NCBI GenBank assembly: GCA_000091205.1
Contig: AP006495.2
Length of the DNA stretch: 64,000 nt
Source: Cyanidioschyzon merolae
Taxonomy: Eukaryota
Direction: 5' to 3' (one strand)
Positions 1-40,457 of the stretch are shown piece after piece. The notes beneath the pieces were generated by a model. That model was not told the DNA's origin, made no database searches, and saw only the letters and a list, made by a program, of their open reading frames with translations. The position numbers were made by a program, and so were the translations under genes. Every line of letters starts with the position of its first letter. Position 1 is the first letter of the stretch.

Positions 1-673
1 CCCAAAGCGTGCAACGAAGCAAACGGACCCAGTGTCTGTGTGCTCCCTTCGTCCTAGCGAAATAGCCACAGAACATGCCGCCACACCGCCGCGACCTAGA
101 CTTGCTTGTGGACGGCAACTCTTGAAAAACAAGGCCTCTACCTCGCACGTCTCTGGACTGGAGGTTTTACCCGCACACGTTTCACCCAGTGCGTCCAGTG
201 AGCCAAGTGTTCGCTCTGAGGCGTCGCAGTCGCACAGCGCAAGCACTATCTGACAAGCGAAGCGACTCTTCGAATAAAGTAGGGAGCGAAAGCTTTTCCA
301 AGGGCTTCCAGTGAGCGCGCTTTTGAGTTGCTTGCTCCCGATTCGCTTCCGTAGAGACGCTCACGACACTAACCTGGGCAAAAACCGCACTCGTTTCGCC
401 CGTACTCGAGTCGATTTTGTACGTATGCAAACCCGACCTATTCGTCACTATCACACCAAAGAATCGTCTCTGTTTCCACGAGACGCTTCCTGAACACCAG
501 CACACTGCAACCTACCGGTCGAGATGCTTGCCAGCCTTGACGACCTGCACCGTTCGAGATGTCGATGAGATCGCAACGCTCTCGTAACGACTGGCTAATC
601 GTGGACTGTTGCCTTCATTCTGGAGTAGCACACAAAACGGCGTCAACGTGCGCTCTTTCAGGGCTCGTGTCTA

Positions 674-1549
674 GTGTCCATCAGGAGCATGTGGTTTCTC
701 GGTATTTTCCAGGCCTTATTGCAGCTGTTTTTAGGCTGGCTTTGTCCGGGCTTGACGCTGCGTTCGCTGCGGTTGCACTGGCGACGCGGCTGGCTTGAGC
801 TCCGAAACCTAAACGTACCCGCGAGTATGACTCGCTATCTGCCGGTACGCTTGCCGGTGCGCTTTGTGAGACTGCATGTGGGTAGACTTCGTATAAAGGT
901 ATCGTGGCGAGCGCTTCGCCAACTGGCTCGCTGGCGAGTTCGTAGTCGTCACCAGGGGCCAGACCCGGACACCCGGCGTGTATCATTGAGTTTCTTGTCT
1001 GAGTTGCTTTGCATTGAGATCGAGGATGTGGGTCTGCTATGTACAGACGATACGGAAGCATACTTGGAATCCCGGTTGGAGCGAGCGCTCTGGAAACGTC
1101 TGCAATTGCAGCTCAAGTTAGCCAAGTTGCAGGAGTGTGAACGTCTCGCTGCTCGCGTGCTCCAGCTGCCTGTGATGGGTGCCCTGGAGTCCGGTGCCGC
1201 ATGGGATGCTTCTCTGGATGCAGAGGGAAATGAGGGGCAATTCTTGTTGGAAGATGCCCGGCATCGTCCAGGGAACACTGAAGCGCCCGACGAGGCCGTC
1301 GACATCACACGCAACGCCAGAGCGGATCCTGTCTCCAATGATCGGTGCATCGTAACCACTCAAGTACCGCACGAGAGCGTGTTGCAGGGTTCGGTATCCA
1401 CTGACGGGGCTTGTTCATGGACAGCGGCACCAGTGTCGTCATCCGCAGCGCCTGATGGTGAACCAGCGAAGCAGCTCGTGAACGCGACCCAAAGCGAAGC
1501 ACTGGAGGCATCGAGGCGAACTCATGCGCATGCTTGCACACCAGAACAT

Positions 1550-1582
<33 letters not shown>

Positions 1583-13500: not shown

Positions 13501-16500
13501 CGCCCTATCCATTCTACCAGTTGTCAAGGTACTGAATGCGCTTCCGTATCCTGCAACACTGGACCTGCTGCAGGACGGTCAACGCACTGGACGCCTATCG
13601 CTGGCCAGTGGCGCCGAGGACACCATCACTGGCGTCAACTGGATGCGCCCCTGGCTCATGGAGTGGTCGGTTCGTGAGCCCGACGACACCTACAAGTGCC
13701 GGGTGCCTTCTGTGTTCACCCTGGAGGCGCCTCGCAGCCTGCCTGATGCATCCCAGTCCTACTGGGATGGCTGGTTCCGCGGTCAACAGACGAATGCACT
13801 GCGGTGCTGGCGCTTGCAACTCGCTCCTCATGGCGACCTGGATCGGTCGAGTGCGCGTTGGCTGCTCACGTTGACGGCTAGTTACTGGTTGCTGAACTTT
13901 ACGAATATCGCCCTGGACGTGCTGCCTTTGAATCCGGTGCCACCAGCGACACCGTCTGCGGACCGCTCGAGCCGCTGGTGCTGGGTATCGTCGTCGACGA
14001 AGAAGCAGCGACCTGATGTGCTTGGCGAGGTCGCTGCAGAGCTGCAGGCACCGTGTACACGAGACGCTGCCACCCGGCAACCGACGCACGAGCTCGATAC
14101 CGAGTCGCCGGTGCGCTTGCACAGGGCGAATGCAACGGTACCGCCCGGCGTACCGGGTTATCCTGAAGTGTCCGTAACAGCAGCATCGTCGCAGGGCGTC
14201 TTTCCGGCACTCCAGGCCGCGCTGTCGTCGTCGCTCGAGTCGAGGTCTGAGCTCGCGTCCGGCGCTCCACAGCAGCAGCATGCTCGCACTGCGTTCGAGA
14301 GAGGAACCGAGGGCTTGTGGATGCTCTCGCTCACGAGTGCGGCTCCGGCTGCTACCATGGCGAACCGTGCCCGGTTTGGGGTACAGGCTTCACCGACATC
14401 CGATCGTCATCAGAGTCGTAGACAACGGCGATTCGCTGGCGGATCGGTGGACGTGCGGTATCAGACCCTGGGACGCAGCGAGTTTGTGCTCGACGGTTGG
14501 CCGCTGGTGATTCATCGTCAGCCTCACTGGGAACTGACCGGTGTCACGCTGGTCTCTTTGCATCCGTATTTGCTCATTCAGAACGCGTCGACGTTCGCAG
14601 TGGCGGTCAGGGCCTTGCATGGGTCATCTGCAGCAGTCCTGGAGCTGCCTGCTTCGGCTGGCTCTGAAGCGTCTGGTGCGTTCTCGGTACGTCCGCTGCG
14701 GCTTTGGCAGCATGGACGAGGACGAAGTGCCCGCTCCTGGCTCAGTCGACCCGTGCTGTCGCTAGCTGTTCGAGAGGATCGTTGTGAGGAAGCCTCGGCA
14801 ATCAACTGGCACTGGTATCGTGACCTGCCGCTGAAAGAGGATCGCGTATTCACGCTGAGCTTTATCATGGAGCATCTGTTGTTGGCGAGTCATCTGGGCG
14901 CCCAGCGTGTACAACTGGTCGAGCGACCTGGTACTGGTGGTAGCACTGGGCTCAAGTCGCATTCCATGAATCCGCACGGAACGGAAGCAGAGCAGCAGCA
15001 GCAGCAGCAGTCGTGTTCGCGGCTGGAAACGGGTAATCAGCATGGAACGAAAGCGAGTCAGCCGGTTGGCGCAAGTCGGTCGAAAGCACGGTTGCTTGAA
15101 TCGAACGTGGATCAGAGACGACACCAGCGCAATGACGACCCGCATAAGCAGCGGTATCCGACGCGGTACCAGGAACAGGATCAGGTTCAGTTGGGTACCT
15201 GTCGACAGGGGGAGCTTCCAGATACGAAGCGCCACCAGCATTGGCAACGTTACAGCAGCAACGAAAGCGCCCACTTACGCGAAGCTTTTGAATGCCTGCT
15301 GCACGTTCAGGTCAGCAGCAACCTCTTGGGTCAGAAAATCGTCATCCTGAGCGACGAGTTACCCACCAGTCCCCGGTTTGCGCTCTGGAATCGTACACCC
15401 TATGTGATCCTCTATCGGTGGATGCCACCGCAGACCCTGGCGCTGGGCGGTAGCCTGTTCCATCGACGGCGCTGTATGTTTCAAGTCGCCAGGCCGTACG
15501 CGCGCCTAACACTGAGTCCAGCCTGGGTCACGGAACACTACTGCTTGCAAGCGATGGCGTTTGCGTCGCTGCGGGAGGCGCTCGAATGGCGTCTCTGGCG
15601 GCATGGACAAGTCTACGACCTCATGGAGCCGCAACGCTATGCAGCATTACCTGTTCAGGGACAAGCTGGCACCGCCATTGACCTGGTTTATCCACAGGTT
15701 GACCTCGTTGGGACCGGCACTGCCCAGCTGGTATTCAGTAGCACCCGGCATACTGCCGCAACAGCAACGACGACTGCGACTACAACGGATACAGCGCAGC
15801 ACACGTCGACGTCAGCGCAAGCGCGGGCGCTCATCGAAACCTCCTTCATGAGCGCTGGTGCCCAGGCGTCTGCATCCAACGAGGTCCCGCTGTTGGGCGC
15901 TTTTCTCCACCGGCAGCGCGGAGCACCATCGCTGGAAATCCTGCTCCAGGTAGAACTGAAGCGCGCGGCAGTCTCGTTGGTGCTGTGCGATTCGCATCAG
16001 CGTTTCTTCGAGATGCTCTATGCGGCGGCCTCGGGAATGGAGCTCTTCCTCCATACCTGCGGACCGGAGTCGTCTTTATCTCTCCAGGTGACTAGCGTTC
16101 AATGCGATAACACGTTACCTTTCTACGTATCTCCGGTATTGATGCTGACCCGCGAGCAGCCGTGGCTCTCGTGTGCGGCGCGGTGGCGGCAACATGCCGG
16201 TGGTCGGCACTACTACAGCATTCAGCTGCGTATCGCCGAGTTGCTGGTGATGTTGGATGATGGACTTTTATGGCAGTTGTTGGAGGCTGCGCGTGAGCTC
16301 TGGTCGAGCTTTTCGCAACGTCGGGCGGGACTGGAGCGCACTGCCCCCGTGCTTCGGAGTGTGCTGGAGGCCGTGGATGCGCCCAGCTTGTGGCTTGCGT
16401 CCAGTCGAGCGGTTGCAGAGCAGCGTCGAGCGCCCTCTTTCTTCCAGCTTGTACGGGTCGAGCGTATGCGCCTGCGGCTATCGTTCAAGACGGATCGGGA

Positions 16501-18067
16501 ACGCGCACTGGAAACTGCGGCCTTGACACGCCAAACGCTCTTCAACGCGGGTCTGGTGCTCACGGAACTCGACAATGCATTGGTTCTGGTGGGTGCATTC
16601 CAGCTACGTCAGGTGTATGCACCGCTTGTACAGGTCATTGAGCGCATGGTACAGCATGTGCTGTGGCAGTCGTTCCTGAGCTCGTATAACTTCATAGGTG
16701 GATTGAGCTGGCTCGGTGATCCAGCCGGCTGGTTGTATGAGCTTCGTGAAGGCACATTTGATTTCTTTAACGAGCCTATCAGTGGTCTGTTCGAGTCCAA
16801 TGAGGCGCTGTGGCGGGGGTTTCGGCGCGGGGCTTTTGCCCAGGGTCAAGCGCTCACCTTTGCGTTAACGCAACCTGCGGCACAGCTAGCCGGTAGTTTG
16901 GCTCGTGCACTCGGCACGATCAGCTTGAACAGGACCTTTGAGATCGCCCGAGCGCGTCAAGATCGCACGCTTGGTGAACCGGAGGATATCTTTCTCGGGA
17001 TCGCGTATGGTATGTTGGGTGCTGGTACTGCGCTCGGTGCCGCATTGACGGGCATATTCGTGGAGCCGGTGCGCGGGTACCGTCAGTCCGGCGTTGGCGG
17101 CTTGTTTCAGGGTCTTGTGGCGGGTCTCTGGGGATGGCTACCCCTGACTTTGGCCTCTTTTCTGGTGCTCGTTCAGAAGCTTGCCATGGGTATCCGCAAC
17201 CAGAACCGGGTGGATCTGCGAACACGAGAACGTCTCCGTGATCCACGTGTGCTCTACCGGGCCAGCGATGCACCGCTTCCACCGTATGTGGCGTATTTGG
17301 CGCGGGGTCAGCGGCTCTTGCACCAGGTTCAACGCGGAGCGCTAGCTACAGAGCCCTACGTCATACATATTGAGTTTGAAATGTCGGCGCTGGAGGACAG
17401 AGAGGAAGAGGAAGCACGGGACTCGTCGATGGAGGCGACGCAGCGCCCTTCGGTTTGGGGTGCTGTCTCGAGAAGGCGCCTAATCGGCTGGATATCCAAG
17501 GGCAGGTTGGCTTCGAGTCTCGGGAAGAATCCTGGTGCTGCTGGTGCTGGTGCTGGTGCTGGTGCTGGTGCTGGTGCTGGTGCTCAGGAAACGCTCATCA
17601 CGGTTGCCGTACCAGCGGCAGTCATTCTCTCCCGTTCATATCTTGTTGCTGTCGACGGGAATGGCGCGTTTCTGTGGCGTTGTCGGCTGGCTCGTATTGA
17701 GGCCATTCGTGAGCGCTCCGATCCGACGGGCATTCGCTGGTTATGGATCCAGGCCCGTCCGAGACGCGGACGAAGTAGACGTGCCTATCTGTTTAGCAAG
17801 CCAGAAGCAGCTGCTTCTGCTTCTGCTGCTGCTGGTGGTGGTGGTGCTGTCGTCATGACTTGGGCAGCATTACCGACACGTCCACCGAGCCCGTCGCTCG
17901 ACGCGTTTATGCAGCTTGTTTCGTTGATGAGACAACGACAGGCCTCGATGGAGGCGGCCTCTCTGCCGCCTAGCCGCGAGCCGTCGACAACGCGAGCCAC
18001 CAGTACGAACAAGGCGGCAGCGGAAACGCTCACGGCACTGGAAACGGATATCTTGGACGCAGTGTAA
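674..18067 (+). CDS. VPS13: Giant VPS13-family bridge-like lipid transfer protein (5797 aa, single uninterrupted ORF)
   Basis: The N-terminus (GIFQALLQLFLGWLCPGLTLRSLRLHWRRGWLELRNLNVP...VRFVRLHVGRLRIKVSW) matches the chorein-N pattern L.NL.L...AL..LP..V..G.IG.L.L.IPW. The C-terminal region (SYNFIGGLSWLGDPAGWLYELREGTFDFFNEPISGL...GYRQSGVGGLFQGLVAG) matches the conserved VPS13 C-terminal GS.d.lGNPvG...G..DFf.eP motif. The protein is full of low-complexity inserts. The true ATG may be at 674 or 689. Confidence 0.8.
1551..1580. repeat. (CAG)10 microsatellite in the VPS13 coding sequence, encoding poly-Ala
   Basis: cagcagcag... read directly from the sequence. Confidence 0.9.
2561..2600. repeat. 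(GCTGGT)n hexanucleotide microsatellite, coding (AG)n
   Basis: gctggtgctggtgctggtgctggtgctgccgctgcc. The same motif recurs at 17533 and 18818. Confidence 0.9.
8448..8951 (+). repeat. Six perfect tandem copies of an 84-bp unit, in frame within VPS13 (28-aa unit SSQTASENAGTSTGIRRAVTVPGEIPTR x6)
   Basis: The unit gatcgtcgcaaacagcatcggagaatgcaggcacgtcgactgggatacggagagcagtcaccgtccctggagaaatacctacga repeats with period 84. The copies are identical apart from one base in the first unit. Confidence 0.9.
17533..17584. repeat. (GCTGGT)8 microsatellite in the VPS13 3' region, coding (AG)n
   Basis: ggtgctgctggtgctggtgctggtgctggtgctggtgctggtgct. Confidence 0.9.
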
Positions 18068-21215: not shown

Positions 21216-22847
21216 TCAGGAGCTCTCGTCGGAGCGCGGTGCGGTCGAAGAGCTCCACGACTGCTGCCGTTGTTGCTGTTGCTGGGTGTCCTGGTTCGCT
21301 GTGAATGGGCACCCGGGGGCGCGTGTGCCACGCCCCTGTCCAAGCGCGTCTAGAACATCGTTACCAACGGCAAGAACTCCCTCCAGGATGCGCAGCAGGG
21401 GCTGTGCCACATAACTAGCACCAACACGCAACCGATGCGCATCTGTTGGCATTCGAGCAATATACGCCAAGCGTCGCAGCTGATGGGCAAGCGGTCCACT
21501 GAGGTTCAAAAGACCCAGCAGTTGGACGCTGCCGTCGTCGCGGCCGAGTGTGATCATTTCGCCCAGATGCACATATTGGAAGGGCAGCGGTTCCCGACCC
21601 GTTAGGCTTGCCCAGGTATTCCACGCAGCAAAATCTGCCTCTTGAAGCGCAATCTGTGCCGTCATTCCGCGTGGTTGCTCCCTCGTTACCACGGGAACAG
21701 CTGCAACTGGCTCTCGGATCTGGGCGGCATCACCGAGCACAATGACCTCGGGATAGTTCGGTAAGCGTAGGAATCGATCCGTAAGTAGCTGGCCTCGTTC
21801 ATTGCGCTCTACTTGCCGGCTAGCAATGAGCCCTTCGCGGATCACCTTATTGATTCGGTTTCCTGCTGTCCAGAGCACCAGGTCTATTTGTTCGAGTGTG
21901 GTTTCAGATGCTGGAGGAGCACGGTCGCCGCTTTTTTCGGCATAAGAAAGGCGTAACGAATTCGGACCTACTGAGACCACGCTTGTTTCAGGTACGAAGC
22001 TTATATTTCGCAGACGCAGCGCACGCGTCGCCTGGGATCGATTATACGCTGTCGACGCTGCCATCAACTCTCTCCCTCGGTCAACGATTTGAATCTGGGC
22101 GCGCGGACCGAGTCGATCACTCAAGTTGCATGCCAGTTCTACGCCGCTGTAGCCTCCACCGACGATTACGATGCGAATCGTTGGCTGCGAAGACGACTCT
22201 AATAGTCGGACCCGCTCGCGAATGCGAATGGCATCCTCGACACTGCGAAAGCCCAGCGCATGCTCGCGAGCTCCAGGAACCATATCCCGCGTATCTTCGC
22301 TGCCAAGAGCGATCACGAGGCGATCATAGGAAATGATCTCATCGGATTCCTTCGACTCAGAAGCGTTGCTGGGCATCATCGGTCGCACAGTTACTCGCCG
22401 CTTGTCGAGATCGATATGCTGCACTTGCGCCTGCAGAAAGTCGACATCGGTGTCTTCTAAAAGCTCCGCAAACGGTGGCGCCACTTCCCAAATGCCCATT
22501 TCTCCGGTTACCAGCTCATAAAGCAGAGGCAGGAAAACGAACCGCTCTCGGGTATCGATCAGTGTCAGCTCCGGTCGGGTGCGTTGTCCCGCAACAAGTC
22601 GCTGGCTTGCGCTCTGCTTTGAAGTATCGGAAGCGCGCCTGCGCTCAGAATTGTCTACAGAAAAAGTGGACTCGCGCTGGGGCGTCCGCGCAGCTGCCTC
22701 ATAGCGACGGAGGTCACGTCCCCACGGCAGCTGGCAAAGTCGCAAGGCCGTGTAGAGGCCTCCAAAACCGCCACCTAGAACGCAAACTTTCGGCCTCAAC
22801 GATGCCATGGATTTGCTCTTTGGTTGATCTTCTTGTGAACTCGACAT
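21216..22847 (-). CDS. Type II (alternative, rotenone-insensitive) NADH dehydrogenase, NDH-2
   Basis: Two dinucleotide-binding motifs, KVCVLGGGFGGLYTALRL and IVIVGGGYSGVELA, in an NDH-2 architecture, followed by a C-terminal Q-rich tail. The track ORF extends upstream to 23198; I take MSSSQEDQPKSKSMASLRPKV (ATG ending at 22847, alternative at 22808) as the likely start. Confidence 0.75.
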   Translation of the reverse strand: MSSSQEDQPKSKSMASLRPKVCVLGGGFGGLYTALRLCQLPWGRDLRRYEAAARTPQRESTFSVDNSERRRASDTSKQSASQRLVAGQRTRPELTLIDTRERFVFLPLLYELVTGEMGIWEVAPPFAELLEDTDVDFLQAQVQHIDLDKRRVTVRPMMPSNASESKESDEIISYDRLVIALGSEDTRDMVPGAREHALGFRSVEDAIRIRERVRLLESSSQPTIRIVIVGGGYSGVELACNLSDRLGPRAQIQIVDRGRELMAASTAYNRSQATRALRLRNISFVPETSVVSVGPNSLRLSYAEKSGDRAPPASETTLEQIDLVLWTAGNRINKVIREGLIASRQVERNERGQLLTDRFLRLPNYPEVIVLGDAAQIREPVAAVPVVTREQPRGMTAQIALQEADFAAWNTWASLTGREPLPFQYVHLGEMITLGRDDGSVQLLGLLNLSGPLAHQLRRLAYIARMPTDAHRLRVGASYVAQPLLRILEGVLAVGNDVLDALGQGRGTRAPGCPFTANQDTQQQQQRQQSWSSSTAPRSDESS

Positions 22848-23145
22848 ACAAAAGGTACGTGTGCTCAACAGCGAGCGTGCACGTCTGCCCTGGCTGGTAG
22901 CTCGACGCCCCCGCTCCACTCGCTGTGCACCAGAGAAAAGGTGCGGCCAAGCAGTCGGCGAAAAGACCGACTGGCGATGGGACTGTTGCGTACGACAGCA
23001 GTTGCGTCCAGCGAATACTGCTGAAAAAGAAAGAAACATTTCGCACACAGGTAAGCTACGCGTGGTATACGGGATCGTAGGGTCAATGGTACTTTGACAG
23101 AACGCGCTGCGTGAACGAGTACGCAATTGCCCGATGAGCGTCCAG

Positions 23146-23270
23146 CGCACGCACGCATATCCATAGACGCACGCACGCATATCCATAGACGCACGCACAA
23201 ATATTCATACGTATGCACGCACGCATATTCATATGTATGCACGCACGCATATTCATACGTATGCACGCAC
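23146..23270. repeat. Minisatellite of about 22 bp, unit ACGCACGCACGCATATCCATAG / TATGCACGCACGCATATTCATA, about 5-6 copies
   Basis: Read directly. The minus-strand ORF at 22865-23308 translates it as repeated CVHTYEYA. Confidence 0.85.
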
Positions 23271-27372: not shown

Positions 27373-29733
27373 ATGAAGGTTCCAAACGGCTCGGACGGTA
27401 CACCCTCCGTGGAAAGCACGGAAAAGGTTTCCCTTACCGACGATGAAATCGTGCCGAACGAGCGCTCAAGGCCTACGAGCTCCCTGGATCTCAGCGCGAA
27501 CGGCCAGCCTCGCTACTCCATCCAGAAGTTGCGAGAGCCACCAAACGTTTTCCATACGCTTGGCGCGTCTCTACTCGGAAGCACCGGGCGACAACTTGAA
27601 AACGGTAGTGATAGAGGAGACCACATTCCAAGCCGCCAACGTTTTCAACAACGAGACCAAGGCCGCCTTGGGGCGTGTCCTATGCAGCCTCGGTTCGACT
27701 GGAAACGTCTCGGTCGCTCGCTCGCTACTATCGGACGCCAATTACCACATGTGTGCTCCAAGTTAATCACAGACTTTGGTACGTGGCTGCTCGACTCATT
27801 TTCGGACCTAGTGCGTCGATCTTCGGCATTTGTACGCCGCTACTGGGTTGCGCTGTTGCTACTGGCGCTTGCAGGCGTCGGGCTCGCTCTACTGGGCAGA
27901 CTCGTTTTTGAACCGCTTTCTTGGAAGGGTTGGTTTACCTTCGCTGTCCTACTCCTGCTGCTTGCTTCACTCATTTGTAGCTGGCTACCAACGGAGGTTT
28001 CGTTTGCGTATGCGGTTGTCACCCTCATGGCCTTTTTCGTGATCTCGCCAGCCGAAGGCCTGATCGGCTTCTCTAACACCGGTGTTGCCGCCGTCGCTGT
28101 CTACTTCATGGTAGCGGAGGGTGTTTACAGAACTTCTGCTCTGCGCACGATCTTTCGAATACTATTGGGACGCCCATCTTCGCTTTTGATGGCACAGGTA
28201 CGCACATGTCTGCCAGCCGCAGTCGTGTCAGCTTTCTTGCACAATACACCTACGATGGTGATGATGATTCCCGGGGTTCAGCGATGGGCGCGTTTTAACG
28301 GCCTCTCTGGAGCGAAAATTCTCATGCCTCTGAACGATGCTGCTGTCCTTGGTGGCTCGACAACCATCATCGGCTCGTCGGTGAACCTCGTAGTGCTTGG
28401 TCTCGTCCAGCAGACGAACGTGCTGGACCCAGCCACGAACCATGTCGTCCAGTTTGGGATCTTTAGCATCACCAAGTTGGCAATCATCAATCTGGCAGCC
28501 TGCCTCGTGTTTATTTTCGTGTTCAGCGGCATGCTGCTCAAGGATCGTGAAAACGTCGTGGAGGACGTAGTTGAGCACCCGCGCGAGTACACAGTCGCTG
28601 TTATGGTTCGCGAAGGATCACCGATTGTTGGTCTAACAATCCAGGAGGCAGGCTTACGCGCCCTCAAGGGTCTCTTCTTGGTAGAGCTGTCACGAAAGAA
28701 CGGTAACTTGATCGCTGCCCCGGGCCCGGATACGGTGATTCAGGCGCAGGACGTTTTGCTCTTCGCTGGTCGCTTGGAAACCGTCGCCGAGCTCTACTTA
28801 ATCGACGGGATCATACCAGCATCGACGCATACTCGCAAACTCTCGGTGCAGATGCACCGGCGCAGACTCTACGAAGTCGTTGTTTCGCCGTTCAGCTCCC
28901 TGGTGGGCCACACCATCCGGGAGACCAACTTTCGGCGCAAGTACCATGCTGCAATCATTGCCGTTCATCGTGGCGGCGCCATTGTGCGGGAGAAAATCGG
29001 TGATATTCAGATTCTCGGTGGAGAGACCTTCATCGTTGAAGCGAGCGAAGATTTCGGTGAACGCTACGCTCGAGACTCCGACTTCAGCCTCGTAAGTGAG
29101 GTGAGTGGCACTGAGCGGCCCCGGGAGGATCTCCCTCATATGCTCGCAGCGGGTCTCTTTGTCGTGCTGATGATCGCTTTTGCAACCACGGGATTCATGT
29201 CGATTTTCGTGAGTGCGAGTCTCGCCACCATAGGGATGCTCATTACGGGGTGTATGACTTTTCGGCAAGCGGGCGCCTCCGTGCAATTGCCGATTCTGCT
29301 CACCATAGGTGCGGCCTTTGGTATCAGTGAAGCGATGCAGGTTTCGGGGGTAGCCGCCCAGCTTTCGCTGCTTATTGTGAAGATCCTGCGCCCGTTGGGG
29401 TCGATTGGAATCCTCTTTGGCATCTACGTCATCACTGCATTGCTGACGAATGCCATTACGAGCATTGGAGCAGTGACGTTGACGTTTGCGATCGTGGCAA
29501 GTAAGGGCACAGGGATTATCTACCTGACGCAGGTGAACGTGTATGCGGCGCTCTATACGATGATGGTCGCAGGAAACTGCTCCTTCATGTTGCACACTGG
29601 CCACCAAACGAATCTCATGGTGCACGGCGCCGCGAATTACCGCGTCTCCGACTGGTTGAAACTCGGCGTGCCTCTTCAGCTCGTGAGCTGTATTGTGACG
29701 GTGGTGGCTGCCAACTTTCTGTACCGGTCCTAG
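27373..29733 (+). CDS. Ion-transporter-superfamily anion permease (CitMHS/DASS-like, YfbS-type) with two central TrkA-C (RCK_C) domains
   Basis: Transmembrane helices at both ends, with FLHNTPTMVMMIPGV and GSSVNLVVLG permease-type motifs. Two cytoplasmic TrkA-C-like units lie between them (YTVAVMVREGSPIVGLTIQEAGLRALKGLFLVEL...; LYEVVVSPFSSLVGHTIRETNFRRKYHAAIIAVHRGG...). The ATG start is confirmed. Confidence 0.65.
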   Translation: MKVPNGSDGTPSVESTEKVSLTDDEIVPNERSRPTSSLDLSANGQPRYSIQKLREPPNVFHTLGASLLGSTGRQLENGSDRGDHIPSRQRFQQRDQGRLGACPMQPRFDWKRLGRSLATIGRQLPHVCSKLITDFGTWLLDSFSDLVRRSSAFVRRYWVALLLLALAGVGLALLGRLVFEPLSWKGWFTFAVLLLLLASLICSWLPTEVSFAYAVVTLMAFFVISPAEGLIGFSNTGVAAVAVYFMVAEGVYRTSALRTIFRILLGRPSSLLMAQVRTCLPAAVVSAFLHNTPTMVMMIPGVQRWARFNGLSGAKILMPLNDAAVLGGSTTIIGSSVNLVVLGLVQQTNVLDPATNHVVQFGIFSITKLAIINLAACLVFIFVFSGMLLKDRENVVEDVVEHPREYTVAVMVREGSPIVGLTIQEAGLRALKGLFLVELSRKNGNLIAAPGPDTVIQAQDVLLFAGRLETVAELYLIDGIIPASTHTRKLSVQMHRRRLYEVVVSPFSSLVGHTIRETNFRRKYHAAIIAVHRGGAIVREKIGDIQILGGETFIVEASEDFGERYARDSDFSLVSEVSGTERPREDLPHMLAAGLFVVLMIAFATTGFMSIFVSASLATIGMLITGCMTFRQAGASVQLPILLTIGAAFGISEAMQVSGVAAQLSLLIVKILRPLGSIGILFGIYVITALLTNAITSIGAVTLTFAIVASKGTGIIYLTQVNVYAALYTMMVAGNCSFMLHTGHQTNLMVHGAANYRVSDWLKLGVPLQLVSCIVTVVAANFLYRS

Positions 29734-31052: not shown

Positions 31053-31628
31053 ATGGATGAATTCGAATGCGCATTTCACAGGGTCGAGACTGAGAGAGCG
31101 AGAAGACAGCAGAGCGCACCGGCGATAGAAACGCACGGAGAGATGACAGAGCACCAAATGATGTCGAGGGCGCGAGTTCGGGCAATTCTTACATTGATGA
31201 GTTCCACCAGCGGGAATAAATGCATAGAGTTCGCGAACCCAGACTTCAATGCCGCCATCAACATCAGACAATATCTGGTGTTGAAGACGAGACCCAGGGA
31301 GCTGACGCGATGTAGCTCTGTGGGGCAGCCTCTCAGGGTCGTACTGCGTCCGAATGAAAAAAGAAATCGATATCAGGAGCTCCGTCAAAATAGACCCGAA
31401 CGCGTCTGCGGGAGAGTATTAATTTACCCCAGAAAGAACAGAAACTATGTCGCTCAACAGAACAAGCGCGCGTCGAGTGGAACAGCGTTATCGCAACGCG
31501 GGAGTCGCAACACTACCATTTCCGTGCATTCGCGTGTCGGAGCACCGTTCGAGTCATATATTCTTGTGGTTTCGCTCGCGCTAGGTGTGAGTCATGAGGT
31601 CCTGCAGTCAGTTAGACTGAGGACTTGA
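31053..31628 (+). pseudogene. Truncated C-terminal fragment of a Fanzor1/TnpB-like RuvC nuclease (RuvC-II remnant to RuvC-III)
   Basis: MDEFECAF (degenerate vDEfrTSk.C) ... CIEFANPDFNAAINIRQYLVLKTRPRELTR matches the RDxNAAxNI RuvC-III signature. It is paralogous to 35615-35893(-), ...VGFVNRDFNAAIIIRRCAVMENRPPKLTR. There is no upstream N-terminal half and no CxxC zinc finger. Confidence 0.5.
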
Positions 31629-31749
31629 GCGCTCCTTCTTGTGCCCTGGTGACCATAGTTATCACGGGGAGTCGCAGAACCAAAAGCACCAGCAGACTCG
31701 GCGAGTTCGAGGTAAGCGTTTCAAGCTCACAACTCCTGTTGCAGTCGGT

Positions 31750-33375
31750 ATGGACGCCCGGTTCGTTACAGACAGCGATCGTTTACAACCTGTGCGGAAG
31801 CGAGTCTATCGAATTCGCCTCTCTGAAGGGGAACAACTCTGTCTCTGTGGAAAGTACAGCGTTACCATTGCTGGCGCTCAAGGTCCCCTGCGGCAGCGTT
31901 TGTTCTTTAACAGTGCAGAGACAGCACTGAGCATTTGGCAGGACCCGGTGCCTGTCGATGCACCTGCCTGGCAAAGTGCACCGGTCTGGCGGGTGCAACA
32001 GGGGCAACTCGTACTTCTCATCACGGATCGTAGCCGCGGTTCCTATCCGTGGCCTATTCGTCTATCAGCGCCAGCAGAAAACAGCCAGCATTTGACCCCG
32101 AAGTCACTCGTTGCTCGTTACACCGCACCGCCGCTGCACTTTTCCGGGCTAGAGAACCTTGTTGCAGCACTACCAGGGGAGCAAGCTCCTGTTGTGCTGG
32201 TTGCTGGACCCCGCCATACCGGCAAATCAACACTCGTATCGCAGTTGAGTTTCATGGGCTGGCCCTATCACCCGCAGCCGCTCATTCTGGAACTCGATTT
32301 AGGTCAGAATTATTTCTTAGCTCCTGGGTACGTCTCTTTCCATGAAGTTCGCGACTTGGCGTGGCCGATATGGAGGGCATCGACTGCGTGCCTCGAGAGC
32401 GTCTTCTGCGGGAACGTCACACCATTCGCGGATCCGGCGTTGTATCGACAGGCGGTGCAGCGATTGTGGAGCGCTTGCGAAGCTTGGCGCGGGAAACGAC
32501 TGGTGCTCGTGAACACAATGGGTTGGGTTCGTGGCTATGGCGAAGTGCTACTCGGCTCCGTGCTGGACACGATTCGCCCCGACCTTATCGTTTGGGTCAG
32601 CGAAGGAACCGATGCGCAACACGCTGGTGGCGAAGCAGAAATAGAAGCATTCGGTACCACTGCCGGGTCACGTGTTCAGGTGCTACACGTCCAGCGAGCC
32701 CCGAGTTCGGCTCACAAGCAGCGATCGCTGTTACCAGCAGTTGCGCGTGCGTCCCAACTCATCCATGAACTTGTGCAGCAGTGTGAAGATGGATTACCAC
32801 GCGGAATCATTGCGGATCAGTTCCGGTGGTTTTTATGGCAGAATCAACCGGCATACCCGATTGTTCAGTTGCTTTGCAGCATCACACCGTGGTGCGTGCC
32901 CCTGGAGTTCTTTGCGGCAGTATTCATGATCGAGCCGTGCGGGATGCATCGTCTCCAGCCTGGCCATGATTCGGAGCGATTATACAGCATGCTGAACGCC
33001 AGTGTCGTCGCATTGTGTGTTACTGTGATCGATAAGGAGGAACCGACGGAGGAGATATCGTTGCAGGCGCCGCAGCGATGGCTCCTGCGCTCCCCTGGTC
33101 TGGGGCTCGTGCGATCGATTGACCCACAAAATGGTCTTCTCTACATCGTGACGAGCGTACCCCTCAGCGTCCTAGAAAGCACGGTTGCTCTCGCGATGAG
33201 CCCCGAGGTGCAGCTTCCCGCAGCAGCTCTGCAACTCGGAGGCATGGAAGCGGAACCGTTTCTGGGTCTGGGGTGCACCGGAACCGCTGAGGATACGGCT
33301 TCTGATGCTGTGGTAACTTCACGGAAGAATCTTCTCCGCAGACGCCTGATGAAAGCGAAGGTGTCGCCTTCATGA
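31750..33375 (+). CDS. Clp1/Grc3(NOL9)-family polynucleotide 5'-hydroxyl kinase
   Basis: P-loop VVLVAGPRHTGKSTLVSQL. The following ELDLGQ and LVNTMGWVRGYGEVLLGSVLDTIRPDLIVWV blocks match Clp1 ELDVGQ...INTCGWVKGSGY...VDVVVVL. The track start at 31639 is TTG; the first ATG (MDARFVTDS) is at about 31750. Confidence 0.6.
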   Translation: MDARFVTDSDRLQPVRKRVYRIRLSEGEQLCLCGKYSVTIAGAQGPLRQRLFFNSAETALSIWQDPVPVDAPAWQSAPVWRVQQGQLVLLITDRSRGSYPWPIRLSAPAENSQHLTPKSLVARYTAPPLHFSGLENLVAALPGEQAPVVLVAGPRHTGKSTLVSQLSFMGWPYHPQPLILELDLGQNYFLAPGYVSFHEVRDLAWPIWRASTACLESVFCGNVTPFADPALYRQAVQRLWSACEAWRGKRLVLVNTMGWVRGYGEVLLGSVLDTIRPDLIVWVSEGTDAQHAGGEAEIEAFGTTAGSRVQVLHVQRAPSSAHKQRSLLPAVARASQLIHELVQQCEDGLPRGIIADQFRWFLWQNQPAYPIVQLLCSITPWCVPLEFFAAVFMIEPCGMHRLQPGHDSERLYSMLNASVVALCVTVIDKEEPTEEISLQAPQRWLLRSPGLGLVRSIDPQNGLLYIVTSVPLSVLESTVALAMSPEVQLPAAALQLGGMEAEPFLGLGCTGTAEDTASDAVVTSRKNLLRRRLMKAKVSPS

Positions 33376-33977: not shown

Positions 33978-34276
33978 TTTTTTTCATGGACAAAACGTTT
34001 ACTTAGGCCAGCGTTCTCCGATTATGCGCTTTTTTCTTTTCTTGCTTTTTTTTGTGTTTTTTCAGTGCACGGTGAGGTATCCATCAAACCCCCTACCTCC
34101 AAGTTACATGACCCATACTTCGTCTCGGATATTCTGGTCGTTTCATACGTCTTATCGTGTGTGCCTAGTGCCTGCCGAAAGCGGCGACAGCAATAGCGCC
34201 TGTAGCGCCGGTGCGGTCGCTGCACGGAGACAGAACGGCGTTGCCGTACCACACACAGAGGGCGTCGGCTCGAGGC
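33978..34276 (+). repeat. Left copy of an approximately 300-bp direct repeat (about 75% identical to 38083-38373)
   Basis: Shared blocks include acgtttacttaggccagcg, a T-run, gtatccatcaaacccc, tccaagtt, catacgt...tatcgtgtg, cgttgccgtaccaca and ggctcgaggc. Confidence 0.7.
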
Positions 34277-34411: not shown

Positions 34412-35491
34412 TCAGGGGTTCAAATCATCTTGAATAATCTCGTCACCAAGGCCTTGCAGGCTCTCATCCTGATTCGTCACTAATCGCTTGAGTTCCAGGA
34501 AGCGCTGGCATTTGAACATAAGCGCAGGCGTCATCATGTCAAGCGCTGCGCCCCGTCCACTTCGACGTTGAGACTCCCCCAAAGTCACCGCTTCAATATC
34601 AGATGCTCGGGGACGTCTGCCCATTCGCGTATAGAAGCCATCGCTCCAGAGTTTGAGGTCCATAGCGAGTGCCGTGAACTGCCGTTTCAGCCGATCGAAG
34701 GCGTTCTCTTCTGAGGTGTCACTGTTAGTGCGGGCCTCGGTGCCTGCACGGTCTCCTCTTCGCTTTACCCAATGGCGGAGCATCGCTCGCCGAATCTTTT
34801 CTCGGGTCGCCTCAGAATGCTTCTTGCCGCGATTCCAGGCCGGTTTTCCCGACAAGGCCTGACGCATTCGTGCTCGAAACGCCGGATCTTGCCAACGTTT
34901 AGATAGGGATGCAGCTTGCTTTGCGATCGTCCCGTTCGACCGCCTGTTCTGCAAAAGCCGAGCGCGCAGCAGTGGGTCCGTCCAGCGTAATCGCATCGTC
35001 TCTGCACGGGTGCTGCTCGGCGTTCGTTTGCGTGCAGGTGGTGCCGTCGGGGACTTCGATTCCGGGTCAAGCGGCTCTGGTTCTGTGCACGCGGTTACTG
35101 CTGCAGCTGTTGGAGTAGACCGCCTAGCGTTCACAGCTTGTCGCTTCTCGTTCACGTCGTCAGGCACTGGAAAAAGCTGCCCAGAGAATACCACCCCAGT
35201 CGATTTACAGTACGTTTCAGGTGTCAGTGCCGTTGTGGCTGTGCCCACTACGTTTGCTAGGATATTGTGTGCAATTCGCGAGCTCCTGAAACCGAGGCTC
35301 TGTAAACTCGAGAGAGCTTCGTTCGCGTGTGGCACCCAACGCTGACCCTTTTGCAGCCCAAGGGTCAGGGCGGACGTCACGTCACGCGTTGTGTGTAACT
35401 TGCAGCGCAGGGGAACCGCTTTACGACCGCAGCGCTCCATTTTGCAATTGCTGAAAGCAGAACAAATGAACATCACCGCAAAGGCACACAA
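34412..35491 (-). CDS. Protein with tandem NUMOD3-type DNA-binding motifs (homing-endonuclease-associated module); function unknown
   Basis: Repeats RWTDPLLRARLLQ, RWQDPAFRARMRQALSGKPAWNRGKKHSEATREKIRRAM match the NUMOD3 consensus G.kHSeETk.KIs. The protein is basic and S/T/P-rich. I could not recognise a GIY-YIG or other catalytic core. Confidence 0.4.
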   Translation of the reverse strand: MCAFAVMFICSAFSNCKMERCGRKAVPLRCKLHTTRDVTSALTLGLQKGQRWVPHANEALSSLQSLGFRSSRIAHNILANVVGTATTALTPETYCKSTGVVFSGQLFPVPDDVNEKRQAVNARRSTPTAAAVTACTEPEPLDPESKSPTAPPARKRTPSSTRAETMRLRWTDPLLRARLLQNRRSNGTIAKQAASLSKRWQDPAFRARMRQALSGKPAWNRGKKHSEATREKIRRAMLRHWVKRRGDRAGTEARTNSDTSEENAFDRLKRQFTALAMDLKLWSDGFYTRMGRRPRASDIEAVTLGESQRRSGRGAALDMMTPALMFKCQRFLELKRLVTNQDESLQGLGDEIIQDDLNP

Positions 35492-35614
35492 AACGCCGTT
35501 CTAAACTCGAACGACGCCGACCGTCTACAGTAGTGGCGAGAAGCCCGCCCTTGACAAGAAATCTCCAACTGACGTGCGGACGCCTCCTGGTCTTGTTCGA
35601 CCGGCCACCTACTA

Positions 35615-37922
35615 CTATTTCCAATTTTTTTCATATAGTTCGACTTTAAGAGATTCTCCTACAAAATTCTCTCGTGTCAACTTTGGGGGTCTGTTCTCCA
35701 TCACCGCACATCTCCTTATAATGATTGCGGCGTTAAAGTCCCGGTTCACAAACCCCACACGTTTCTTGCCATTGATTGTACTTTCTAATGCAAGTAGTCC
35801 ACGAACTTTCGCTCTCCTTTCCATTCGCTCTTCCGTCAGCGCTCCGTACTTTGCTATATCCTCAGGGCTCCGCTGGCCCTTTTCTATCTCCACTCTCTGA
35901 AGTGTACAACCTGGCTCGTGGTGTGTGTAGCACCTTCAGATCCCATCTATCGGTATCGGAACGAAACGCCGTGCACACTCCTTGTGCGTTCTGGTCGTTG
36001 GAGCTGGCGTAGTCCCTTTTTGGGGCTTCCAGCGCCCTGCCCCGTATGCTACTACGAGCCTCTGACTTTCATCCTCATTCAGGGCGCTCAACTGATTGAA
36101 AAAATTCGCGAACGCCCGCTGTTTCCCACAGTATAGATTCATTCGCAGATGAGCCCACCGGGGCTGGGTATACTCTTTCCACAGCGACTCCCAGTGAGCA
36201 GGGCGAACTTTCATGAATTTCCGAAACGCTTGACAGTCTGCTCCGCGGCTCGTCACCTCGCCCAAAGCTTCCAGGTGATCCTTCATTCCTGCATTCTACG
36301 TAACGATTTTCTTCCTTGCATTCATTATACCGGATTCTCGATGGTACCGTGCTCTCGAGAATCTCAAAAGACGCATGTCTTTCTGACGCAAGTTGCCGGC
36401 AGTACCATCTTCCGCACGTTTGGGTACTGCGATGGTTATGATATTTGTGTTTCCGGGGTCCGCGCCAACGACAAAGTCGTTCTCATGCACTTCCTGCGTG
36501 GTAGGATCCGCCTCCTTCTCATCTTCATGATTCGCCGCGCCTACGAAAAGGTCGTTCCCCTCCACCTCCTGCGTCACAGGATCCGCCTCTTTGTTTTATT
36601 CATGCTTCGCCGAGGTCGAAGCCGAGGGCGGGACAGGGCGATTTGTCTTCGACTGCCGATAGTGTACGCACATGGCTACCCAATCGGTTCCGATCATCCC
36701 AGTGAATACCTTTTGTTTGCTCAGTCGGAGACGTTTAAAATCGAAGATACTCTTCCTGTACGTCTCTCGGTTTTCACCTATGAACTCCTCCCTGCTAACA
36801 TTGAACTCGGGACTGATCTCCTTCATGATGCCGTAAAGGACTCTGGGGTCGATAGTCACAAAATGCGCCTTGATGTTGCACAACTGAATGACGTTGAAGC
36901 GCTTGCCCATTAGGAAAGCCTTCCGTCTCTCCCACTCTTCATTCCATTTCCTCAATCAGCTTCATCTCCGCCTTCCGTTCGAGTTTCCGGTTCAGGAATA
37001 CGAAATGGCGCAGAATGAGGCGATAGTATCTTTCCTCATCTTTTTTCAACTCTGATATCTTGTCTGCTGGATTCGCCAGCCCCAAGAATGCACGATGCTC
37101 TTGTACAGCCGCACAGATTACAGAAGCTTCATTCGTGCTCTTGTTTGACACCTTCTTCCCAACAAATTCGATATCCTGTTCATGCTTGCGATCGTTCGTG
37201 ATGCCATTGATAATCGCCTATACTCCGTTGCGAGACAGGCCCGAGCACAGCGCAAATACGGCGCGTATCATGAAACTTTCGAGGTTCATAGTCAAATGCT
37301 TCTTCAGGTTCGTGATGTACTTCATCGCCCGATAGTCGTAAATATCCACGTGACCCTTGTATCGAGTACCATCGAAGCTGTAAAAGGGATTTTTTTCGTG
37401 GAGGGCGTGAACTCGCTCATTTTCCCTCCGCGCTTCCGCTGTGCCAAGCATCAGGTGCCGACTAAAATTCTTATCGAAAAATCCTCCGGAATCTCGACCG
37501 TTTCCATGTGCGTCACCTCGCGATACATCTCCCGCACCAAATGCATCAGTCCTGAGGACGCCTTGACAATACTCTTGGAGTACGAGTCGATACTTTTTCG
37601 ATAGCGTGTCGCAACTTTTCCCTGTAGGGATCCTTGATATGTCCAAGAAGAAAGGTTTTCACCACCCTCTCGTCGTACAGCCGTCTTTCTTGGCGCCTTC
37701 GACGGAGGACCTTCCCCCTTCGGTTCTTCTTCTCTTCCTTTTCTTCCGGACTCGGCACTGTTTTTTTCTGGCAGCCGGCGACCGTTGGCCTCCAGGATCG
37801 TCGACTTGCTTTTTCATAACTTTCCTTTTTTTAAGTTCTTTTGAAAAATAACGCTCTTTGAACCCTTCTGTTATATACCGCGAAAAACACTTGAATACAC
37901 TTGTTTGAGGTTCCAAAAACAA
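35615..37922 (-). pseudogene. Degenerate Fanzor1/TnpB-like RNA-guided RuvC endonuclease gene (about 770-aa span broken into at least 8 frame segments)
   Basis: K/R-rich, NLS-like N-terminus (KELKKRKVMKK...RKKQCRVRKKRKRRR) at 37659-37922. Ruv[19 protein letters not shown] at 36296-36577. RuvC-II block LVVAYGAGRWKPQKGTTPAPT at 35936-36286. RuvC-III NRDFNAAIIIRRC at 35615-35893. Multiple frameshifts and stops lie between the segments. Confidence 0.55.
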
Positions 37923-38082
37923 ATGAACTGAATGACTGTACCTGGCTACGACCTCAACGAAAATACAAATTCTACATGAGATCTACATGCTAGAGATCAG
38001 GATCATGTTTCCCTTCAATGGCGGCATGCGCGTCGCGCCAGTTGACTGCCCGACCTCCGAGGTGCGCTCACTAAGCGCGATT

Positions 38083-38373
38083 CTTTTTTTCTCATTGACA
38101 GAACGTTTACTTAGGCCAGCGGCCTCCGATTGAGCGCTTTTTCTTCTCATACTATTTTTCTGTTTTTGTAGTGCGCGGTAAAGTATCCATCAAACCCCGT
38201 ACTTCCAAGTTCCGTTGCCCATACTTTTTCTCGGATATACTGGCCGTCTCATACGTTCTATCGTGTGCTGAGTACCTGACTCGTTCGTCCGCATTAGCGC
38301 CCATAGCGCCTGCGCCGCCGCTGTACGGAGATAGCACGACGTTGCCGTACCACAAAGGGCATCGGCTCGAGGC
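38083..38373 (+). repeat. Right copy of the approximately 300-bp direct repeat
   Basis: See the left copy. Its minus-strand ORF 38152-38382 is similar to 34022-34336 (YETTRISETKYGSCNLEVGGLMDT vs YETASISEKKYGQRNLEVRGLMDT). Confidence 0.7.
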
Positions 38374-39176
38374 CTGCTTCATCCGACGTAGAATCGGGTC
38401 TCGTCCTCAGTTTGTGCTCGGACAGTCTGCGGATGCAGGCTTGTCTTCGCTGCACGACACGCTGGAGAAACTTGGCTGTTAGGATATATCATGGGAGCCG
38501 CCTCTTTCCTTCGCGATCATGCATGGAATGCGTCGTTGTCGGTTGGCAATGCGGGTTTGTGTTTGACACCCACCACAGTGGGTAGGCGTAGAGAGCACTA
38601 AACCCGTGTGCGCATCCGATTCGCTCGACCTTCCGCCTAGAAGGTAGAGTGTGAGTTTGTTCGCCACTTATGAGCGCTGAGGCTCGGTTAGCGGACCATC
38701 ACATGCCAGTGCTACACTCAAAGTGAGTGTCCGGCCTTTGACTATCACGCTGCTGCCCAGCTGCTGCTGTCCTTCAAGGAGCTCGCTGTGCTCCTGCTTC
38801 CAGCGCGGGCACTGTAAGCCTAAATATGGCAGCGTCCGGGGGTCTCGTTTCCACAGCAGGGACAGTGTGATTCCCAGTGCGTTTCCAGTGTCCCTATACG
38901 GCTTAGAGGCGGTGCTGCTAGCCAGAAGCCGGCAACGTAGATTTGCGTCTTCTGGATACACTGCCGCACAACAGCGCACGCCGAGATCGACCACCGCCGT
39001 AGCCTCCACCAGTCGTACTGCAGCCGATGATGCTCGCACGCTGGCCCTGAGCGGCATCTCGATCTCTTTTGTGAGAAAGATACGGGTCACTGCTGTACAG
39101 CGATGACCGGAGCTCGCTAGGGAGTCTTATAGGATAGGTTGATGTTCCGACTTTCTTCGCATTCTTTTTTCTCGAG

Positions 39177-40457
39177 ATGACTAAAGAGTGTAAAGCGAAT
39201 CTGGCTCGGACGAGCGCACGTCACGAGCAGCTCGCATCGAAGCCGTTTGGTTTCTGTTACACCGTGCTGCGGGAGGAGAACTCGCACCAAGCGCGTGACG
39301 AGCTTTCCGATGCAATTCGAACCCATTTTGTGAACGCGAAAGTCAACGAGCGGTCCATACCTTCGCGATTTTTCTATGACGACGCTGGAACAGCGCTGTA
39401 TGAACGCATCACCTGCACTGAAGACTACTATCTCACGCGATGTGAACGGGAGATTTTCCGTAAATACTGCGATCGGATATTGAACATCGCAGTTGGACTG
39501 GACGAAGATGCACCTATTCGATCGCACTCTCCCAATGAGAGAGCCTTACATATCATCGAACTGGGCGCTGGCGACGGACACAAAACAGCAGTGCTGGTGC
39601 AGCGTGCTCTGCAACGTGGCCTGCACATCACGTACCGTCCCATTGACATCAGTGAGCGCGCCATGACGGACTGTGCGGAGCGCATCCTCGCAACGCTGAG
39701 CGACCCCGAGAATGGTCATCAGCGTTTGGAGCATTCGAGTGTTGAAGCGCAGTTCACCTTCCATGGTATTGTGGGTGATTTCTTCGAAGGACTTGGATAT
39801 GCGCTGCGCGCACCAGGACGGCGTCTGCAGAACCCTGTTGAGGATCGACTACTGGCAAACGCGGGCAACGCGGGGTATGGTGCAGCTCCCGAGTCAGCTC
39901 ATGAGCATGCTCGGCACTTAGTCATGTTCATTGGATCTTCGATTGGCAACTTTGATCCCACGAACGCTATAGCATTCTGTAAGCAGGTTCGGAGCTTGCT
40001 GCAGCCTGCCAGGGATCACTTTCTTGTCGGGTTCGATCTGCGAAAACCTTATGCAATCATGCACCGAGCGTATAGTGACCGTGAGGGTATTACTGCAGAA
40101 TTTAACCGCAACTTGCTCCGTCGTGTGAACAGAGAACTTGGATCCAATTTCAATCCGGCGAAGTTTGAACATTTTGCCCAGTACAATGTTCGACTCGGGG
40201 CGATGGAGAGCTTCCTTGTCGCCACCGAGCATATGCGTATTGTTTTTCCAAATCTGGCGATGGACACGACGGCGTTGCCGACTGGGAACGAAATCGCGAT
40301 AGAGCTGCGCCCCTGGGAAGCCATCCATACGGAGTACAGCTGGAAGTATACTTTAGAGGACATTTCTGCGCTGGCACAGAAAGCTGGCTTTAGTAGGATT
40401 GCTGCGAATTTCTTTGATTCGAAGAACGGGTTTGTGGACAGTATCTTCGCTCCGTAG
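39177..40457 (+). CDS. EgtD-type SAM-dependent histidine N-alpha-methyltransferase (Methyltransf_33), standalone
   Basis: PSRFFYDDAGTALYERITCTEDYYLTRCEREIF, ELGAGDGHKT, FIGSSIGNF, DLRKPYAIMHRAYSDREGITAEFNRNLLRRVNRELGSNF...FEH and EYSWKY match M. smegmatis EgtD motif by motif. There is no fused EgtB/sulfoxide-synthase domain. Confidence 0.75.
   Translation: MTKECKANLARTSARHEQLASKPFGFCYTVLREENSHQARDELSDAIRTHFVNAKVNERSIPSRFFYDDAGTALYERITCTEDYYLTRCEREIFRKYCDRILNIAVGLDEDAPIRSHSPNERALHIIELGAGDGHKTAVLVQRALQRGLHITYRPIDISERAMTDCAERILATLSDPENGHQRLEHSSVEAQFTFHGIVGDFFEGLGYALRAPGRRLQNPVEDRLLANAGNAGYGAAPESAHEHARHLVMFIGSSIGNFDPTNAIAFCKQVRSLLQPARDHFLVGFDLRKPYAIMHRAYSDREGITAEFNRNLLRRVNRELGSNFNPAKFEHFAQYNVRLGAMESFLVATEHMRIVFPNLAMDTTALPTGNEIAIELRPWEAIHTEYSWKYTLEDISALAQKAGFSRIAANFFDSKNGFVDSIFAP

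Follow-up and report, generated by a model that had tools for sequence, protein, structure and literature searches.

NUMOD3 (Pfam PF07460) is normally a DNA-binding module of homing endonucleases; in the case of I-TevI, the unit binds DNA as a helix (PMC11201747 and work cited there). A nuclear plant gene with this module, ClNUM1 of Chrysanthemum lavandulifolium, has been studied by overexpression phenotypes only (PMC11201747). A second DNA-binding module is known from replication factors. The N-terminal domain of RecQ4 is a homeodomain-like three-helix module without the minor-groove arm, which binds DNA without sequence specificity, favours branched DNA, contacts DNA through R43 and K49 of helix 3, and also contacts TopBP1 (PMC3458545). 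Here we describe CYME_CMM182C (CMM182C below), a gene of Cyanidioschyzon merolae 10D whose product resembles the DNA-binding halves of these two systems and belongs to neither parent family. The gene lies in a 64,000-nucleotide stretch of contig AP006495.2 (assembly GCA_000091205.1), which is called the window. CMM182C is probably a single-copy, vertically inherited nuclear gene that encodes a non-catalytic nucleic-acid-binding protein, a member of a red-algal family with green-lineage relatives.

The open reading frame (ORF) of 359 codons at 34412-35491 on the minus strand, from which the original prediction had started, opens with TTG at 35491. Its first ATG is at 35473, where the annotated coding sequence begins (34412-35473, minus strand; 353 aa plus a TGA stop), and the ORF thus carries six extra upstream codons. 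The ORF listing and an exact-sequence match showed that the 353-aa product is identical to CYME_CMM182C (BAM81035.1 / XP_005537071.1 / UniRef100_M1V5P6), which is a "hypothetical protein" at NCBI and a "Nuclease associated modular domain-containing protein" in UniProt. The protein is basic (isoelectric point (pI) 10.7; 62 K+R residues versus 35 D+E), and the pI of its central repeat region reaches 12. The family is transcribed, as several relatives derive from assembled transcriptomes. Five near-identical environmental copies (P0299, P0303, P0308, P0311 and P0312) carry the automatic JGI/IMG name "stalled ribosome alternative rescue factor ArfA". This name was rejected as spurious for the cluster, the Pfam match being sub-threshold (14.2 bits against a cutoff of 25.5). 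The stop codon TGA of strain 10D (34412-34414) reads CGA in a 99%-identical environmental strain (L001, 2034-2042), and the 10D allele is therefore 2 aa shorter; the L001 protein ends in ...NPRK and that of Cyanidiococcus in ...DARK.

The NUMOD3 profile matched CMM182C in one stretch only, with 28.5 bits (gathering cutoff 20.4; E=1.5e-6), and reached 32 bits when the central fragment was scanned alone. The match spans residues 206-234 of the 359-aa ORF (34790-34876, minus strand), with the sequence RARMRQALSGKPAWNRGKKHSEATREKIR. This sole profile-supported unit consists of GKPAWNRGKKHSEATREKIRRAM plus RARMRQALS just before it, and NUMOD3 was also present in 19 of the 20 relatives scanned with Pfam. 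At least three NUMOD3 repeats had been claimed for this protein. Since Pfam matches a single stretch, the second and third of them are two halves of one match, and only one unit passes the profile. The region at 34853-35011 (minus strand) holds two family-specific W-x-D-P-x-x-R (W-DP) units, RWTDPLLRARLL and RWQDPAFRARMRQ, which gave no NUMOD3 match at E<=10, singly or joined. Residues W170, D172, P173, R176, W200, D202, P203 and R206 are invariant among the Cyanidiales orthologues, and both units are predicted helices with a predicted local distance difference test score (pLDDT) above 90 in an AlphaFold2 (AF2) model. The W-DP units were also considered as divergent NUMOD3. Besides the Pfam null, hhalign gave a probability of 3.4% when a profile of 49 W-DP units was compared with one of 28 canonical units taken from GIY-YIG proteins of bacteria, and the register of DPxxRxRM with SxETRxKM was suggestive only. 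Judged from alignment and model, the W-DP units are a conserved, family-specific repeat of related-looking predicted helices rather than supported NUMOD3. A PDB match of the repeat-region profile to nitrile hydratase alpha (AWTDPAFKQRL) was dismissed as a chance-level motif resemblance.

The CMM182C unit GKPAWNRGKKHSEATREKIR, scoring above threshold, is shared with the NUMOD3 modules of homing endonucleases (I-TevI and I-BmoI type; PF07460), and relatives with 2-4 tandem units show the G-K-x-H/L-S-x-E-T-R-x-K-I/M-S pattern of bacterial and phage GIY-YIG proteins. Unlike these enzymes, CMM182C has no nuclease domain and is nuclear, syntenic, single-copy and not mobile. The units of its family are interleaved with W-x-D-P-x-x-R units that are absent from canonical endonucleases, and the CMM182C array is fused to a Sld2-like domain. 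ClNUM1, compared by description only, is likewise a nuclear eukaryotic protein with NUMOD3 as its sole recognised domain and no nuclease domain. The original prediction had stressed how unusual a nuclear NUMOD3 protein would be. The gene is nuclear, but the oddity is weaker than stated, because UniProt already gives NUMOD-domain labels to CMM182C and to its relatives in Galdieria and Compsopogon, and the nuclear ClNUM1 has been published.

The C-terminal ~80 aa of CMM182C, which had been overlooked, resemble the homeodomain-like N-terminal domain of Sld2 and RecQ4. This putative domain (LKLWSDGFYTRMGRRPRASDIE...FKCQRFLELKR; 34472-34705, minus strand) is suggested by the family profile, hhalign and the AF2 model. 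Conservation within the family is highest over residues ~263-340 (FDRLKRQFTALAMDLKLWSDGFYTRMGRRPRASDIE ... TPALMFKCQRFLELKR), and the motif L-x-x-W-S-D-x-[FY]-x(4)-G-R-x-P was found in 39 retrieved proteins, invariably after the NUMOD3 array. When a 27-sequence profile of the domain was searched against the PDB, the top match was 2KMU, the RecQ4 N-terminal domain (E=0.0038). In hhalign the domain aligned with residues 3-50 of RecQ4 at a probability of 94% and with the N-terminus of yeast Sld2 at 93.8%, as compared with 0.4% for the reversed sequence and at most 1.8% for 30 shuffles; of the RecQ4 sequence used here, residues 7-37 were verified against the 2KMU alignment. Positions 3-48 of Pfam Drc1-Sld2 were matched in long relatives, with 30.3 bits in P0062 (cutoff 28) and 18-26 bits in the others. 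The AF2 model, built for the 342-aa sequence that starts at the second ATG (35440), is confident (pLDDT>90) and all-helical over residues ~150-335 and disordered before them; the three predicted helices of the domain stand in the expected order with pLDDT>90. In the hhalign register, the equivalent of RecQ4 K49 is a nearly invariant K/R in the family, and that of R43 is R/K in most members and Q in C. merolae. A whole-protein family profile gave no meaningful match in the PDB. The domain is followed by a conserved acidic tail (G-D/E-E-I-I-x-D-D; 34415-34471, minus strand), in which G349, E351, I352, I353, D355 and D356 are invariant in the alignment.

With the N-terminus of Sld2 and RecQ4 (PF11719, 2KMU), CMM182C has in common the motif L-x-x-W-[SE]-x-x-F-x-x-x-x-G-R-x-P-x-x-x-D-[IV] and, after it, a third helix that is basic and ends in L-K/R-R. 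It differs in that the domain is placed at the C-terminus, in a W-S-D triplet instead of W-E-x, and in an insertion of ~16 aa that separates helices 2 and 3 in the Cyanidioschyzon clade. It also has neither a helicase nor the Sld2 phospho-region, and taken alone it falls below Pfam detection. Closer in architecture are long red-algal and green paralogues (P0062 of Agarophyton, P0054 of Compsopogon, P0084 of Chlorokybus, P0160 and P0040), in which NUMOD3 units precede the Sld2-like motif W-S-D / G-R-x-P; in P0160 the order is that of CMM182C, a W-DP unit and then GKPAWNKGK. These proteins are paralogues rather than orthologues of CMM182C, measure 360-720 aa and have more canonical NUMOD3 units. 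Within the red algae, a further type of paralogue, longer at 360-580 aa and equipped with canonical NUMOD3 units, was seen in P0062, P0054, P0033, P0035 and P0088, and P0033, P0062 and P0088 each contain two Sld2-like motifs. The green-lineage relatives P0084, P0160 and P0040 keep the same order, NUMOD3 and then the Sld2-like motif.

A word-seeded search of 5.8 billion proteins retrieved only three clusters of close homologues, from C. merolae, Cyanidiococcus yangmingshanensis (54% identity) and GCA_041825655.1 (52%), so CMM182C has no close paralogues. In an exhaustive HMMER profile search, 123 proteins passed E<=1e-3, and 23 also passed E<=1e-10. Members with a species name belong to Cyanidium caldarium, Galdieria sulphuraria, G. 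partita, G. phlegrea, Agarophyton chilense, Eucheuma denticulatum and Compsopogon caeruleus, and Chlorokybus, a streptophyte alga, has a relative that is more distant. On the basis of alignments, the motif census over the 39 proteins and the profile search, the orthologues share a variable N-terminus, two W-DP units, one or more NUMOD3 units, an L-K-L-W-S-D...G-R-x-P domain and K-x-x-R-[FY]-L-x-L-[KR], and CMM182C has this architecture. The combination of NUMOD3 with the Sld2-like domain recurs in Cyanidiophyceae, florideophytes, Compsopogon and the green relative Chlorokybus.

Nei-Gojobori estimates for the conserved part gave dN/dS (nonsynonymous over synonymous substitutions per site) of 0.37/2.45 (~0.15, dS saturated) between the window and Cyanidiococcus, and of 0.17/1.45 (~0.115) between Cyanidiococcus and GCA_041825655.1. 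By these estimates, the conserved part of CMM182C is evidently under purifying selection. The gene is free-standing, in neither an intron nor an intein, within a syntenic block shared by three Cyanidiales genomes. The order Pyr_redox_2 - CitMHS - NOL9 - gene - Methyltransf_33 - LRR - Acatn - ACC is common to the window and the loci L003 and L004, where the orthologue stands between Methyltransf_33 and NOL9/CLP1_P, followed by CitMHS, Ctf8 and Pyr_redox_2. The corresponding neighbours in the window are Methyltransf_33 (39177-40457, plus strand), NOL9/CLP1_P (31639-33375, plus strand), CitMHS (27373-29733, plus strand) and Pyr_redox_2 (21216-23198, minus strand).

The N-terminal ~150 aa (35024-35473, minus strand) are acid-poor, unconserved and predicted to be disordered. 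This region could not be aligned even among the Cyanidiales; its dN was 1.26-1.27 versus 0.35-0.37 for the conserved part, and its pLDDT was 40-52. A degenerate GIY-YIG, HNH or LAGLIDADG core had been suggested as a target for a profile search here, and the search of the N-terminal 133 aa returned 0 Pfam families at E<=10. In the whole protein Pfam found nothing besides NUMOD3, with no nuclease family at E<=1. Nuclease families had no meaningful E-value in any of the 20 scanned relatives, and none of about 60 relatives carries a nuclease domain. The absence of a catalytic domain, noted originally, was thus borne out. Since the N-terminal ~150 aa are unconserved and predicted to be disordered, they are probably not a decayed catalytic core. 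The N-termini of many relatives are acid-poor and rich in Ser, Thr and Arg, and an A-F motif (PAFS, LAFS, MLLFVGS) lies close to their beginning; that of C. merolae contains MFICSAFS. Such N-termini resemble red-algal plastid transit peptides. The region may serve in organelle targeting or as a linker.

Put together, the protein would have three parts, namely a fast-evolving disordered N-terminus, a basic helical array of two W-DP units and one NUMOD3 unit, and a C-terminal three-helix Sld2-like domain. The basic array of NUMOD3 and W-DP units would run along the DNA, and the NUMOD3 helix would supply the groove contacts that a RecQ4-type, Sld2-like domain lacks. The outcome would be a bipartite, largely sequence-tolerant binder of DNA or branched DNA that does not cleave it. 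Such a protein might act on plastid or mitochondrial DNA as an accessory of the nucleoid, of replication or of recombination. A role on organelle DNA is plausible because the N-termini of relatives resemble red-algal transit peptides; that CMM182C itself may be localized to an organelle is the weakest step of the proposal.

Among the functions offered by the original prediction, only that of a domesticated DNA-binding protein found support, and several observations weigh against this reading. Domain homology is the sole basis for the predicted DNA binding. The region of the C-terminal domain has a pI of 5.1 and is not basic. The resemblance of this domain to Sld2 comes from family profiles with moderate statistics (E=0.004; 94%), and CMM182C alone gave no Pfam Drc1-Sld2 match. 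Fold searches with the AF2 model returned generic helical bundles only and retrieved neither 2KMU nor I-TevI, and the repeat-region profile found no solved NUMOD3 endonuclease in the PDB, neither I-TevI nor I-BmoI. As to targeting, the N-terminus of C. merolae is not clearly a transit peptide, and the N-termini of many relatives stem from automatic gene calls. Neither an experiment on CMM182C nor a record of its expression turned up in the searchable full texts or in the supplements of three C. merolae papers.

The gene borders a transposon copy. CMe-1A, a Fanzor1 element of 3,169 bp, lacks terminal inverted repeats and is present in C. merolae in about 150 copies that each share ~80% identity with the consensus; it encodes one protein, CMe-1 (734 aa), which is Fanzor1 only (PMC3627910). 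A degenerate, TnpB-like copy was located by blastn at 35515-38067 on the minus strand, outside the gene (consensus positions 660-3145, 84-88% identity). By eye, the last consensus bases GAAAGGCG fall at 35501-35494, about 20 bp upstream of the ATG, and CMM182C accordingly lies outside the element. The CMe-1 protein aligned end to end in frames -3/-2/-1/-3/-1/-3 with internal stops and at least 5 frame changes, which confirmed that the neighbour is a nuclease pseudogene. Profiles said little about it: Pfam gave only a 12-bit match to Cas12f1-like_TNB, and the PDB gave nothing. For an intact relative, AF2 gave a model with a pLDDT of 35, too low to be useful. Relatives of the ORF fragments showed TnpB-type motifs on direct reading, including VNRDFNAAINI, and the identity of the neighbour was settled by aligning it directly with the CMe-1A consensus as published and with the CMe-1 protein. 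The ORF fragments at 35615-37922 (minus strand) have >200 fragmentary relatives in hot-spring metagenomes and therefore belong to a high-copy repeat. With tblastn, no trace of CMe-1A was found at L003, L004 or L005, and the spacer between Methyltransf_33 and the gene measures about 960 bp in Cyanidiococcus versus 3.7 kb in the window. The element copy is thus a later, lineage-specific insertion beside a pre-existing gene. Its 3' end lies ~20-40 bp from the ATG of CMM182C on the same strand, so the promoter or 5' untranslated region may now lie in the transposon end, or the gene may be reached by read-through. This would be a possible case of a transposon capturing the upstream region of a gene.

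Other explanations of the locus were weighed against a vertically inherited, non-catalytic binding protein. We consider it unlikely, though not negligibly so, that CMM182C is a nuclear replication or chromatin factor, an Archaeplastida carrier of the Sld2/RecQ4 N-terminal module acting at origins or forks, perhaps through a Dpb11/TopBP1-type partner, with the NUMOD3 array as an added DNA anchor. The C-terminal domain is specifically similar to Sld2 and to RecQ4 N54, a segment that binds TopBP1 and DNA (PMC3458545), and a reading of the sequence shows S/T-P sites along with basic patches (KSPTAPPARKRTPSS) in the disordered N-terminal half. However, because the Sld2-like domain sits at the C-terminus and not at the N-terminus, CMM182C lacks the domain position of a Sld2/RecQ4 initiation factor; such factors are essential for origin firing and carry, behind the domain, a CDK-phosphorylated region for binding Dpb11/TopBP1. 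The N-termini of many relatives look like presequences rather than nuclear signals, and the coexistence of short and long paralogous types in red algae is unexpected for a core initiation factor. Far less credible is that a homing endonuclease lost its catalytic domain by decay in place and survives as a remnant or as a free-standing relic. Outside this family, NUMOD3 typically forms part of GIY-YIG and HNH endonucleases, and the weaker database matches to the NUMOD3 unit are such enzymes, with PF01541 and similar domains. Yet the remnant proposed originally has left no residual catalytic signal at E<=10 in an N-terminus that is itself variable and predicted to be disordered, and the about 60 relatives are free of nuclease domains as well. 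The gene also lies outside introns and inteins, in a syntenic position, and is under purifying selection across lineages with dS > 1.4. Given this synteny and selection at saturated dS, any loss of a nuclease would be ancient and the protein has been kept for another role.

It is highly improbable that CMM182C serves the adjacent Fanzor1/TnpB element as its accessory or DNA-targeting gene, the DNA-targeting partner or transposase-accessory protein of the original prediction. The two lie on the same strand with the end of the element close to the ATG, and repeat fragments of the element flank the gene on both sides. Against this, the consensus built from about 150 copies stops before the gene and codes for Fanzor1 alone (PMC3627910), orthologues in Cyanidiococcus and GCA_041825655.1 occupy the same slot at loci without the element, and the element copy is dead whereas the gene is conserved. 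A chance open frame in repeat-rich DNA has a practically vanishing probability. The region does contain many ORFs of 60-140 aa in all frames, and transposon fragments flank this one, but cross-species conservation (orthologues at 52-54% identity), purifying selection at dN/dS ~0.12-0.15, a significant Pfam match and a confident structure model indicate a real ORF. A chance frame is refuted by these sequence comparisons.

For a non-catalytic binding protein of this kind, the gene model, the NUMOD3 annotation and the CMe-1A transposon are already public, and in this respect the puzzle was resolved in an ordinary way, with an annotated locus, a known label and a published transposon as neighbour. 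In the literature searched, we met with no account of NUMOD3 coupled to a Sld2-like domain or of the conservation of this coupling in red algae and the green lineage, and with nothing useful on plant Sld2. A module of homing endonucleases has here become fixed in a nuclease-free host protein, which is conserved from Cyanidiophyceae to florideophyte seaweeds and green-lineage relatives and is always coupled to a domain related to Sld2/RecQ4-N. The Sld2-like assignment suggests a concrete hypothesis for an uncharacterised family, binding of DNA or branched DNA and possibly a part in organelle genome maintenance or replication. The hypothesis is directly testable, since C. merolae is amenable to gene targeting and localization. 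It is a doubtful and rather speculative extension that the family is a new Archaeplastida-wide replication or maintenance factor, either a nuclear counterpart of Sld2/RecQ4-N or a plastid or mitochondrial nucleoid-replication accessory that joins a homing-endonuclease module to a replication-factor domain. This reading leans on the specific domain similarity and on a conserved, constrained family.

Further repeats were found around the gene. A fragment of the CMe-1A 5' region or TE-N2_CMe type lies in the 3' intergenic region at 34092-34275 on the plus strand (blastn, consensus 84-256, 78% identity) and is 79% identical to 38086-38373, and a second 5' fragment stands head-to-head with the truncated CMe-1A copy at 38176-38398 on the plus strand (blastn, consensus 60-282, 74% identity). 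Direct copies of ~300 bp at 33978-34276 and 38086-38398 (both plus strand), 79% identical, bracket CMM182C and the Fanzor1 copy. Within the Fanzor1 pseudogene, a 78-bp tandem duplication (36460-36537 and 36535-36612, 79% identical) repeats an acidic segment, extra copies of which occur in some intact relatives. An older Fanzor1 relic, with 55% amino-acid identity to CMe-1 residues 612-706, lies between CitMHS and NOL9 (31059-31346, plus strand) and occurs as well in L001, a near-identical environmental contig.

Elsewhere, a single ORF of 5,797 codons at 674-18067 on the plus strand encodes a giant protein, which matched no Pfam family at E<=1e-5 when scanned as two halves. No tRNA genes were found in the window. 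The genes of the window are long and intron-free, and include those for acetyl-CoA carboxylase, HMG-CoA synthase, an acetyl-CoA transporter, a CitMHS transporter and a NOL9/CLP1-type kinase.

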